Shown here: positions 45,277 through 50,189 of the stretch, piece after piece
Position numbering within the stretch: the stretch's first letter is position 1
How the letters are laid out: each line of letters starts with the position of its first letter
Source: Shigella phage sb1
Sequence record: PQ666539
Direction: 5' to 3' (one strand)
Length of the DNA stretch: 64,000 nt
Notes under the pieces: generated by a model
Database searches by the model: none
The model's input: only the letters and a program-made list of their open reading frames with translations
What the model was told of the DNA's origin: nothing
Translations under genes and position numbers: made by a program

Positions 45277-46455
45277 TTAAAAATATTTTTTAAAACTCAT
45301 CATAACTTTATCATCAACATCATTATCAATCTGTGCAACAAGGTAAGATGACAGTTCTACTTCTTGCGGCGCGGATTGAACATTATCAGAATTAAGGTAT
45401 TCACGAATCCAAGGATACGGATGTTTAACCGGAGCATCGGTAATTGGGCATGGAAGACCACACTGTTTCATACGAGACACAGTTAAGTAATCAATGAAGC
45501 TCCACATGCTATTTGTATTTAATCCAGGAACATCACCATCTTTAAATAAATGAACTGCCCAGTCTTTTTCTTGGCGGTTAACTTCCATGAAAATATCAAC
45601 TTCTTCTTGTTCGCACTCTTGGGCAATTTTAACCCATTCATCACCATCAGTGCCAAGTTGAAGTTGACGAATAATATATTGGGTGCCTTTAAGGTGAAGC
45701 TGCTCATCACGAGCAATGAACTTCATAATCTTGGCATTACCTTCCATGATTTCCATGTTCTTATGGAAGTTAAAGGTACATGCGAAAGATACATAAAAAC
45801 GAATAGCTTCCAATGCGTTGATTACATGCAGACAAAGGTAAAGAGAACGCATTAGTTCACGTTTCCAATACATTTCATGCTCTATGGCATCTTTAATATC
45901 ATCTTCGTCTGCGTTAATTTCTTTTTGGTACTCAATATCAGCTTTAGCATTCTGCCAATATCTAGTTTTCTCAATAACATCATCATAATAACGACCAATA
46001 GATTCAGCACGTTTCATGATAGCTTTATCTAATACAATCTCATCAAATACCTTTGACGGATCATTATAAATATTTCGAATGATATGATTATATGAACGAC
46101 TGTGAATAGTTTCGCTAAAAGTCCATGTAGCGACCCATGTATCAAGGCTTGGATCTGAAATTAATGACATAAGTACAACAGAAGGTGCACGAACCTGAAT
46201 GCTATCCAAAAGTGATTGATAATTCAGGTTATTAGTAAAAATATCTTGCTGATACTGAGGAAGCTTGTTAAATTGTGCAGCATCCATCATCAAGTTTACT
46301 TCTTCAGGACGCCATAAAAATGATAATTGCTTTTCGGTTAAATCTTCAAAAACTTTATGGCGTTGAATATCATAACGCGCAATACCAAGACCTGAACCTA
46401 AGAACATAGGTTCTTTTAAAACATCAACTGGATTTGTATTAAAAACTGTGCTCAT
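45277..46455 (-). CDS. nrdB: Ribonucleotide reductase small subunit NrdB, intron-less
   Basis: Continuous 392-aa ORF recognised as NrdB. Confidence 0.9.
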   Translation of the reverse strand: MSTVFNTNPVDVLKEPMFLGSGLGIARYDIQRHKVFEDLTEKQLSFLWRPEEVNLMMDAAQFNKLPQYQQDIFTNNLNYQSLLDSIQVRAPSVVLMSLISDPSLDTWVATWTFSETIHSRSYNHIIRNIYNDPSKVFDEIVLDKAIMKRAESIGRYYDDVIEKTRYWQNAKADIEYQKEINADEDDIKDAIEHEMYWKRELMRSLYLCLHVINALEAIRFYVSFACTFNFHKNMEIMEGNAKIMKFIARDEQLHLKGTQYIIRQLQLGTDGDEWVKIAQECEQEEVDIFMEVNRQEKDWAVHLFKDGDVPGLNTNSMWSFIDYLTVSRMKQCGLPCPITDAPVKHPYPWIREYLNSDNVQSAPQEVELSSYLVAQIDNDVDDKVMMSFKKYF

Positions 46456-46506
46456 AAATTTTCCGCTTAGTTAATAGATAGTGACTCGTCCGTGAGTCAA
46501 ATTATA

Positions 46507-48771
46507 TCATAATTTACAGGATGAACAATCTTCAGCTTTTGGAATTTCTATTTCATAATCATCAGTACCAGAACCATCACGGGTATTATGATAATAGAAA
46601 TTTTTTCCGCCAAAATACCAAAAATACAAAAGGTCATCAATCATTATTGACATTGGAACCTTTCCTTTTGGAAAAATCTGCGGGTCATAATATGTATTCG
46701 CTGAAGCTGATTGACATACCCATTTCAGCATAATAGCTACCTGCGTAAGATAAGGTTTATTACCTTTCTTAGCTAATTTCCACGTATAATCATAGAGGTC
46801 TATGTTATGTTCAATATTGGGCACGACTTGATTAAAGGAACCCTCTTTTGATTCTTTAACAGAGACTGGTCCACGTGGAGGCTCGATACCGTTTGTACTG
46901 TTAGAAACTTGGGAAGATGACTCACATGGCATAAGTGCTGATAATGTGCTATTACGGATGCCAAAGAGCTTAAGGTCTTCCCGCAGCGCAGACCAGTCAC
47001 AAACGGATTTTGGAGCTGCGATTTGGTCAATCTTTTTATTGTACCAGTCGATAGGTAATTCGCCTCGAGACCATTTAGTGTCTGAATAATACTCGCAAGG
47101 TCCTTTTTCTTCGGCCAACTTGATTGATGCTCGGATAAGTCCATACTGTAGTCTCTCAAACAGTTCATGAGTTAAATCGTTTGCGTCTTCATAAGAAGCA
47201 AAGTTGCTTGCCAGCCATGCTGCGTAGTTAGTAACACCCACACCAAGGTTACGACGTTTCTTAGCTTTTTCTGCTTCAGGAACTGGATATCCTTGGTAGT
47301 CCAAAAGATTATCAAGAGCACGAACTTGGACTTCTGCCAATTCATTAATTTTATCTTGGTCTTGCCAATCAAAGTTATCTAAAACAAATGAAGATAATGT
47401 ACACAATCCAATTTCAGCATCAGGACTATTCACATCATTTGTTGGAATAGCAATTTCACAGCACAAGTTGCTCTGACGAATAGGCGCCTTTTCACGAATA
47501 AATGGAGTATATTTATTCGTATTATCTATGAACTGCACATAAATCCTTGCTGTTCCTGAGCGTTCAGTCATGAGCAATTCAAACAGTTCACGGGCTTTAA
47601 TACGCTTTTTACGAATATTAGGGTCTTTTTCTGCAGCTTCGTATAATTCACGGAAACGGTCTTGGTCTTTAAAATAAGAATAGTAAAGTTCGCCACCCAT
47701 TTCATGTGGACTGAACAAAGTAATGTAATCATTCTTTCCAAATCGTTCCATCATAAGGTCATTCAACTGGATTCCGTAGTCCATATGACGAATACGGTTC
47801 TCATCGACACCTTTGTTGTTTTTCAGAACGAGCAGATTTTCAACTTCCAAATGCCAAATAGGATAATAAGCAGTAGCAGCGCCGCCACGGATTCCACCTT
47901 GTGAGCATGATTTAACAGCAGTTTGGAAATGTTTCCAGAACGGAATAACACCGGTATGGCGTACTTCACCTGTGCCAATCTTAGAACCTTCGGCACGAAT
48001 CATACCAACGTTAATACCAATTCCAGCGCGTTTGGAGATATATTCAACAATTGAAGCGGAAGCCTTATTGATAGACTTTAATGAATCACCTGCTTCAATA
48101 ACAACGCATGAACTAAACTGCCGAGTTGGAGTACGGCAACCAGCCATAATAGGAGTTGGCAATGAAATCTGTCGAGTAGATACTGCTTCATAAAAACGAA
48201 TAACATGTTTTAATCTATCAACAGGTTCATCTTGATGCAATTCCATTCCAATAGTCATAAATGCAAACTGTGGAGTTTCATAAATTTGACCAGTGGTTTT
48301 ATCTTTAACTAGATATTTTTCTTTTAATTTCATCGCCCCGGAATAAGTAAATTCCATATCCCGTTCGTGTTTAATTTTTGATTCTAAAAATGTAATTTAT
48401 TATGCTGAGTATTTTGACAACAATTCAGGGTCATATTTACCTTCATTTACACAGTAATAAATATGGTCAATAAATGAACGTGGTTCATACTGCCCGTAAA
48501 CATGCTTACGAAGAGCGAACATTAAACAGCGTGCAGCTACGTACTGATAATCAGGCTCTTCAACTGAAATAGAATTCGCAGCAGCCTTAATGACAATAGT
48601 CTGAATGTCATCAGTGGTCATTACATCACGGAGATATGATTTAATATTTTCATATAATTCATAAGGATCTACAGATGTTCCTTCAGCTGCCCAAGATAAA
48701 ACTTTAATAATTTTTTGCGGGTCAAAGCTCTGAGAAACACCACTACTTTTGATAACATTAATTAATTGCAT
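46507..48771 (-). CDS. nrdA: Ribonucleotide reductase large subunit NrdA, interrupted by two consecutive in-frame TAA codons at 48397-48402
   Basis: 123-aa and 616-aa same-frame pieces; span 754 codons, the T4 NrdA length; ATP-cone N-terminus and catalytic core recognised. Confidence 0.9.
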
Positions 48772-49088
48772 AAGTCCTCAACTTGAAAATCGTCTTTAAA
48801 CAATCGGTTAACTATATGAGCTATTATATCACCATGACACGGCTTTGGTTTACATGTGCATCCTAGCCTCATTCCACGTAAAGGCTCTAAATGTGCTTTA
48901 GTTATTTCTCCGGATTTAATTCGACGTATAAAATCTTTTTTGAATAATTCAATGGCAGCCGCCCGGCTGCCATCATCTTTACCGACGTAATTTCCCCAAA
49001 ATGTACCACGGTGAATATTAACATCAAAGTCGGATTTATATTTATTCACTACCTGACATAGACGGCCCGCGCGGTGATAATTCGTCAT
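48762..49088 (-). CDS. Hypothetical Cys-rich protein (T4 nrdA.1 position)
   Basis: 108-aa ORF, ATG start. Confidence 0.55.
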
Positions 49089-49317
49089 ATTGTTTTTCAG
49101 TTAAAACAGTAATATCATAATAACAATCAGAAGAAGTTTTAACTGTGGAAATTTTATTATCAAAATACTCACGAGTCATTTTATGAGTATAATATTTTTT
49201 GCCATAAATGATAATAGGCTGATTTGGTCCTGGAACTTCTAACTCGCTTGGATTAGGAAGTGTAAAAAGAACTACGCCAGAAGTATCTTTAAATCGTAAA
49301 ATCATATATCCTCTCAA
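49042..49317 (-). CDS. Hypothetical protein (T4 nrdA.2 position); 47-nt out-of-frame overlap with the downstream ORF
   Basis: 91-aa ORF. Confidence 0.5.
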
Positions 49318-49328
49318 TTAAATTAAAA

Positions 49329-50188
49329 TTACACCGCCATCTTTCCTTTAATTGGCGGTTGAGATACATAGTTGTTAAGAACAAAATTATGCGGCTTTGC
49401 GAATTGACTCAACCAAAATACCTGCGATTCTGTGTCCCATTCATCAAATTCATCTGGAAATTTTAATTGTAATTCGCATAAATCCATAGGTTCACGACGC
49501 AAAATTTCTTTACATTGTTCTACGTTATTCATATAGATATGAGTATTACCACCAGAAAATATCAAATCTCCCGGAATAAGATTACACATCTTAGCTACAA
49601 TATGAACTAACGTAGAATATGATGCAATGTTGAATGGCAAGCCCAAGAACACGTCAACACTTCTTTGATACCACTGCAAATCCAAATAGCCATTACGCAC
49701 ATTAAATTGATAGAACATATGACAAGGTGGTAATGCCATATATTTAAGTTCAGCTGGATTCCATGCAGAAACAATTTGACGCCTATCATTTGGTAGTTTT
49801 TTAATACGATCAACAACTTCTATAATTTGGTCTACACCACCAAAATCGCGCAATTGTTTTCCATAAATTGGACCAAGTTCACCACTATGGTATCCTAAAT
49901 CTTTTGCTTGATTTTCGTAATTTTCATCCCAGACTGTTTTGCCTTGAATTAATGAATCATGTTGAATTAATCGCAAATCATTGACATTTGTGCTTCCCGA
50001 TAAAAACCATATTAGTTCAGCAATGCAAGCTTTCCAGGCAAGCTTCTTAGTCGTTACTGCAGGAAAACCTTTAGTTAAATCCCAGCGTAATTTAGTACCA
50101 AACAAAGCAATTGTTCCTGTGCCTGTTCGGTCATCGGTTTCGTAACCATTTTCCAGGATATCTTTAATTAAAAATTGGTATTGTTTCA

Positions 50189-50189
<1 letters not shown>
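49329..50189 (-). CDS. td: Thymidylate synthase, intron-less
   Basis: [26 protein letters not shown]... continuous; ORF extends 4 codons upstream to an alternative start at 50201. Confidence 0.9.

Follow-up and report, generated by a model that had tools for sequence, protein, structure and literature searches.

We analysed a 64,000-nucleotide (nt) stretch of Shigella phage sb1 (PQ666539; hereafter the window) and, within it, the interval 45277–50189, which holds the genes for thymidylate synthase (td) and for ribonucleotide reductase's large and small subunits (nrdA and nrdB). This interval is very probably the standard nucleotide-metabolism cluster of Tequatrovirus, denA-nrdB-nrdA-nrdA.1-nrdA.2-td-(small open reading frame)-frd, in the configuration in which the insertion sites of introns and homing genes are empty, the common state of the genus. 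The window belongs to a Tequatrovirus and is collinear with T4 (NC_000866) from gene 14 on at approximately 95% identity, along a T4 span that starts at position 94793 and extends past 150000. The interval carries nrdB, nrdA, nrdA.1, nrdA.2 and td, all on the minus strand; denA adjoins its lower end, and an open reading frame (ORF) of 68 amino acids (aa) and frd adjoin its upper end. The best database matches for 45000–50500 were Escherichia phage Ec_YwIITB1 (PQ356294; 96.7%) and Shigella phage pSs-1 (NC_025829; 96.1%). T4 has accumulated 15 homing-endonuclease genes through homing; T-even phages that have no introns, seg genes or mob genes were already described in the late 1980s, and genome surveys find them to be the norm.

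An earlier reading, made from the sequence alone, had described nrdB and td as single uninterrupted ORFs, and both gene models held. The nrdB gene (45277–46455, minus strand) is one ORF of 392 aa, the product of which gave a full-length match to PF00268 (E = 5.6e-34; 118 bits vs. a gathering cut-off of 33.6 bits). Global alignment to T4 nrdB left a single gap of 598 nt at the junction 45780/45779; this is the empty insertion site (45779–45780, minus strand) of the 598-nt group I intron that in T4 holds the I-TevIII relic. The junction reads ...TATCTTTCGCAT / GTACCTTTAAC... in the window and ...TATCTTTTGCGT / GTACCTTTAAC... in the T4 exons, and between −20 and +30 the I-TevIII site differs from that of T4 at only two positions. 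Identity to T4 is no higher than 81% in exon 1 but approximately 95% in exon 2. The window protein is longer than spliced T4 NrdB (392 vs. 388 aa) because of its allele of a variable loop, where the four extra residues lie. This loop (residues ~170–200; window 45856–45948) occurs in at least three alleles: that of T4, that of RB32, and one common to the window and pSs-1. Codon 42 of nrdB is AAG and stands beside the conserved WRPEE block (gaa AAG caa tta tca ttt tta tgg cgt cct gaa gaa); AAG at this codon has been reported for all phages that lack mobE and are nicked by MobE (PMC2790892).

The td gene (49329–50189, minus strand) is likewise uninterrupted, and encodes 286 aa from an ATG at 50189. 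Its product matched PF00303 over the full profile (positions 1–266 of 266; E = 3.5e-90; 302 bits vs. a cut-off of 24.3 bits). When the gene was aligned globally to T4 td, a gap of approximately 1016 nt, the length of the T4 intron, opened at the junction 49641/49640. The C-terminal segment of td had been noted as unlike that of T4, and the alignment bears this out: in a variable cassette at 49380–49499 (minus strand; td nt 691–810), 70 of 120 nucleotides and 27 of approximately 30 residues differ from T4. The same non-T4 allele is present at ≥95% identity in 156 phage records; it is a common alternative allele and no peculiarity of this phage. As a whole, td is a mosaic of YwIITB1-type and RB32-type sequence.

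The intergenic regions were as compact as the genes. The nrdA stop and the nrdB start are 51 bp apart (46456–46506, minus strand), the figure given in the sequence-only reading, whereas the T4 spacer spans 696 bp and contains mobE and nrdB.1, both of which fall in a clean gap when the window is aligned to T4. This spacer is the same as that of pSs-1 base for base, differs from that of RB32 at four positions, and contains neither mobE nor hef; a TATAAT directly follows the nrdA stop, and there is also a 6-bp hairpin. The 23-24 spacer (12364–12446) is 83 bp long and has no segD (812 bp in T4), the inh-uvsW spacer (17458–17507) is 50 bp long and has no segE (669 bp in T4), and the 59-32 spacer (53237–53340), which is nearly identical to that of RB32, is 104 bp long and has no segG (689 bp in T4). 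When T4 intron, endonuclease and seg sequences were searched against the window with blastn, only shared intergenic edges and chance-level words were returned, and no tblastn match below E = 0.3 was obtained with I-TevI, the I-TevIII relic, MobE, NrdB.1, SegD, SegE or SegG. Thus the absence of mobE, I-TevI, I-TevIII and the three seg genes, as previously claimed, stands, and alignment with T4 brought up no intron or seg sequence; the accompanying statement that the T4 loci carry group I introns, intron-encoded endonucleases and mobE agrees with NC_000866. A gathering-threshold scan with Rfam 15 found no group I intron in the window, but found none either in a T4 control (134000–150000) that holds both introns. 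The scan was discarded as an intron test for missing both real T4 introns (td and nrdB), and an empty Rfam result says nothing against phage introns that bear ORFs.

We compared this configuration with a census of approximately 516 phage records that contain the same nrdA segment, in which an element was counted at ≥80% coverage. All six elements were minority traits: the td intron was present in 197 records, the nrdB intron in 118, full-length mobE with nrdB.1 in 20, segD in 53, segE in 159 and segG in 142. Reviews call T4 an outlier and the empty state the majority (PMC2988022; PMC2993671, Table 5), and the same table lists RB14, RB15, RB18, RB26 and RB32 without intron-encoded endonucleases. 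The layout of the window is correctly described, but it is ordinary and already published.

From these absences, the sequence-only reading had assigned the phage to a T-even lineage free of introns. The absences stood; the assignment to a lineage was not supported. The phage is not to be called intron-free, because nrdD lies outside the window; moreover, the empty state is that of the majority, and intron presence does not follow relatedness. Phage Maryam is 94.6% identical to the window over 45000–50500, yet has approximately 1 kb extra, with an annotated homing endonuclease and a split td, and one metagenome locus (L045) has td exons 92–96% identical to those of the window together with a 1016-nt intron. 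The presence of introns and homing-endonuclease genes is thus sporadic and not clade-defining. A population test on td relatives from IMG/VR and metagenomes was dropped: most came from other T4-like genera (65–80% identity), and approximately 12 loci were at the Tequatrovirus level.

Of the phages compared, RB32 (NC_008515), pSs-1 and YwIITB1 are annotated with the gene order and spacer lengths seen in the window. In RB32, neither td (861 nt) nor nrdB (1179 nt, 392 aa) contains an intron; this phage has a 51-bp nrdA-nrdB spacer, no segG between 59 and 32, and the same synonymous allele of the I-TevI site as the window. It differs in the ORF between frd and td (115 aa vs. 68 aa in the window), in the NrdB loop allele, and at 44 of 861 positions in the remainder of td. 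Both pSs-1 and YwIITB1 share with the window the gene order, including the 68-aa ORF, the C-terminal td allele and the nrdA-nrdB spacer, and pSs-1 also shares the NrdB loop. In contrast to the window, these two phages have intact nrdA and rnlA and a third, T4-like allele of the I-TevI site, with 15 differences from that of the window. T4 shares the collinear backbone of approximately 95% identity, on which the common genes are ordered and oriented alike, but carries I-TevI in a td intron, the I-TevIII relic in an nrdB intron, nrdB.1, mobE, segD, segE and segG, as well as the other C-terminal td cassette and the divergent nrdB exon 1. Conversely, it lacks an ORF found between genes 18 and 19 of the window, a second alt paralogue, the ORFs at 39746–40273 and 41909–42229, and the small ORFs flanking frd. 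Finally, T2, into which the homing of MobE and SegG has classically been followed, resembles the window in that it lacks mobE and has AAG as codon 42 of nrdB beside WRPEE, a comparison that rests on the description in PMC2790892; the window reads FLWRPEE, probably a sequence error for FFWRPEE.

In an empty-site cluster of this kind, td and nrdB would be translated from contiguous reading frames, with no need for RNA splicing, and no homing genes lie at the nrdA-nrdB, 23-24, inh-uvsW and 59-32 junctions. On mixed infection with T4, RB3 or a similar phage, the window genome would be the recipient in homing. We infer this susceptibility to T4-type elements because AAG at nrdB codon 42 and the WRPEE block mark MobE-sensitive phages, and because the I-TevIII site is nearly identical to that of T4. 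Annotators should treat td and nrdB each as one exon and should not look to T4 as grounds for imposing mobE, segD, segE or segG on the genome. On its own, the finding carries little weight; its by-products, concerning sequence quality and the I-TevI site, are more useful.

The same arrangement could have arisen by secondary loss, if an ancestor had possessed both introns (td and nrdB) along with the mob and seg genes and had lost them precisely, for example through recombination with intron-less relatives. Cycles of gain, degeneration and loss are the accepted life history of homing elements (summarised in PMC5009752), the I-TevIII gene of T4 is itself a degenerate relic (PMC1865063; T4 annotation), and the mosaic td points to frequent recombination at the locus. 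Nevertheless, remnants were found of none of the six elements, and the exon flanks are not of T4 type (81% identity in nrdB exon 1; an RB32-type td site); no co-conversion footprint of a former T4-type intron is visible. Six independent precise losses would also be less parsimonious than no invasion, and we consider such a history improbable. Even so, among the points that weigh against our conclusion is that the sequence is compatible with both histories, sites never occupied and sites occupied and then cleanly emptied. Of the three T4 intron sites, moreover, the window covers those in td and nrdB, with nrdD outside it, and the census counts contain RefSeq/GenBank duplicates and partial records, so that percentages derived from them are approximate.

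The remaining points of this kind concern the quality of the sequence. A tblastn comparison with T4 proteins showed that conserved genes between window positions 1858 and 53212 are interrupted by 27 premature stops in frame (e.g. at 2975, 3461, 4125, 11617, 22634, 44238, 44391, 48397–48402 and 53210), in genes that include 16, 17, 18, 22, 23, 27, 29, 48, 51, uvsW, uvsY, rnlA, 32 and nrdA. A G>T change at codon position 1 lies behind 21 of the 27. Private G:C>T:A changes occur at approximately 1.45% of G:C sites, compared with 0.02–0.24% for other transversions, and are in six- to ten-fold excess. Within the cluster, nrdA (46507–48771, minus strand; 754 codons) contains an in-frame TAA TAA at 48397–48402, which the sequence-only reading had overlooked; T4 and relatives read GAA GAA here, and the stops occur in 0 of 516 phage records. 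We rejected a biological origin of the stops (suppressor dependence or recoding) on the grounds that all three stop codons are involved, that essential genes (including 17, 18, 22, 23 and 32) are hit, that the changes are mostly G>T, and that the nrdA pair is found in none of the records. The stops and the G:C>T:A excess are probably sequencing error or DNA damage and not the state of a viable phage. Because of both, single-residue details of td and nrdB are unreliable, and the private changes W113L, A192S and H222N in td and F47L in nrdB may be errors and are not for interpretation.

These signs of poor quality could be taken to mean that introns and endonuclease genes are present in the phage and were dropped or collapsed in assembly. 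The errors, however, are substitutions and not deletions, the reading frames across the six junctions are intact, and the junctions and spacers match those of independently sequenced phages almost base for base; an assembly artefact of this sort is extremely unlikely.

Although the empty-site cluster is ordinary as a whole, the empty I-TevI homing site within td (49629–49667, minus strand; td nt 523–561; insertion point 49641/49640) is of local interest for its allele. This allele is of RB32 type, reads CAA AGA AGT GTT GAC GTG TTC TTG GGC TTG CCA TTC AAC, and differs from T4 at 14 of 39 positions with no amino-acid change. Over td nt ~520–570 there are 15 differences from T4 and 15 from the closest relatives, all of them synonymous; on either side of this stretch, the window and those relatives are almost the same. 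Across 60 bp, the site reads CAACGCTCAGTAGATGTTTTCTTGGGTCTACCGTTTAAT in T4 with the intron deleted, CAACGTTCGGTAGATGTTTTCCTCGGTCTTCCATTTAAT in the pSs-1 type, and CAAAGAAGTGTTGACGTGTTCTTGGGCTTGCCATTCAAC in the window and RB32 type. The RB32/HY01-type synonymous patch spans window positions 49620–49679 (td nt 511–570) in a td that is otherwise of YwIITB1/pSs-1 type. RB32, HY01 and others, approximately 30 records in total, have the window allele, and all are contiguous across the insertion site. Because the allele resembles the td of other T4-like genera, the patch looks like imported sequence.

The patch might stem from gene conversion driven by the endonuclease or from selection for poorer I-TevI substrates. 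A tentative explanation is that it is an I-TevI-resistant allele, which short-patch gene conversion would have brought in and selection against cleavage would have maintained, although we regard this as unlikely. In its favour, the codon class has switched for Arg (CGN to AGA) and Ser (TCN to AGT), which points to import and not to stepwise drift, and among 14 distinct Tequatrovirus td sequences, a small sample, pairwise diversity is maximal at the I-TevI site and leaves the protein unchanged. Many CNNNG variants are moreover poor I-TevI substrates (PMC5009752). The cleavage motif is kept in the window as CAAAG, however, with the critical C1 and G5 intact, and I-TevI is very tolerant of substitutions (PMC5009752; PMC12774661). 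In the accessible text of the literature consulted, the MegaTev paper included, we found nothing on I-TevI activity at a CAAAG motif. That the allele is seen only where the intron is absent is expected in any case, because homing converts the flanks to donor type and this co-conversion alone suffices. Nor did we take the patch as statistically remarkable: comparison with the closest relative gave 16 comparably divergent 60-nt clusters in 39 kb, and the chance that one of them covers a given site is approximately 5% (p ~ 0.05). More broadly, the patch and the diversity peak might be the footprint of an arms race, in which alleles that escape or reduce I-TevI cleavage would spread among Tequatroviruses by short-patch gene conversion; we hold this, too, to be unlikely. 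If true, such an arms race would help to account for a super-Mendelian td intron being present in only ~38% of genomes. The clustered synonymous variation at the site, if borne out by a larger census and cleavage assays, would bear on why phage populations hold fewer homing endonucleases than expected from laboratory crosses (PMC2988022).

Outside the cluster, the sequence-only reading had singled out an HNH gene between genes 18 and 19 as standing out against the intron-free background. The gene exists, as a free-standing 205-aa ORF (5763–6380, plus strand) that forms a clean 656-bp insertion relative to T4 and combines a zinc ribbon with an HNH-like motif. It hardly stands out: full-length copies occur in 47 phage records (RB3 among them), and partial ones in approximately 70 (T6 among them). 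Its assignment as a putative HNH nuclease is plausible from the motif: in 29 homologues (33–76% identity), the zinc-ribbon residues C59, C62 and C77 and the set D157-H158...N180...N189 are invariant. No HNH family was matched in Pfam (E up to 10) or NCBIfam (E up to 1), a Pfam domain was present in 0 of 37 homologues, a profile search against PDB sequences returned zinc-ribbon matches only, which are noise, and BLASTP against T4 MobE showed no similarity. A single-sequence AlphaFold prediction (pLDDT 36) was discarded, and the alignment-based model used instead gave a weak fold match. The ORF is the only homing-endonuclease candidate among the non-T4 ORFs of the window that were examined, and the case for a free-standing homing endonuclease is circumstantial, consisting of the clean insertion between conserved genes and the patchy distribution. 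The ORF (within 5724–6487) is bracketed by strong hairpins, GGGGCTTCGGCCCC upstream and AGGCCTG...CAGGCCT downstream, with a late-promoter-like box, TATAAATA, after the second hairpin, and matches Shigella phage sb3 at 100% identity over 646 nt.

Several neighbouring genes complete the cluster. Homologues of nrdA.1 (48762–49088) and nrdA.2 (49042–49305), both on the minus strand, were each located by tblastn with the T4 protein at 94% identity. The 68-aa ORF between frd and td (50189–50395, minus strand; phrog_9550, E = 6.8e-44), also overlooked in the sequence-only reading, overlaps both genes, is absent from T4, and is annotated in pSs-1 and YwIITB1. Because RB32 carries the different 115-aa ORF at the same place, the frd-td junction is a variable insertion point. 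A second small ORF beside frd (50976–51221; 81 aa; phrog_3183) is likewise not in T4, and both ORFs overlap start or stop codons of their neighbours.

Elsewhere in the window, the Hoc homologue (15349–16767) is 472 aa long, compared with 376 aa in T4, and aligned to T4 Hoc in two overlapping segments, which suggests one additional Ig-like repeat. The second paralogue of alt (ADP-ribosyltransferase; 27925–29982) is 42% identical to T4 Alt and has an in-frame TAG at 29449; in YwIITB1 both alt copies are intact. Two further ORFs that T4 does not have, one between cd.2 and cd.3 (39746–40273; 175 aa; phrog_3710) and one between pseT and pseT.1 (41909–42229; 106 aa; phrog_2364), had no Pfam match.

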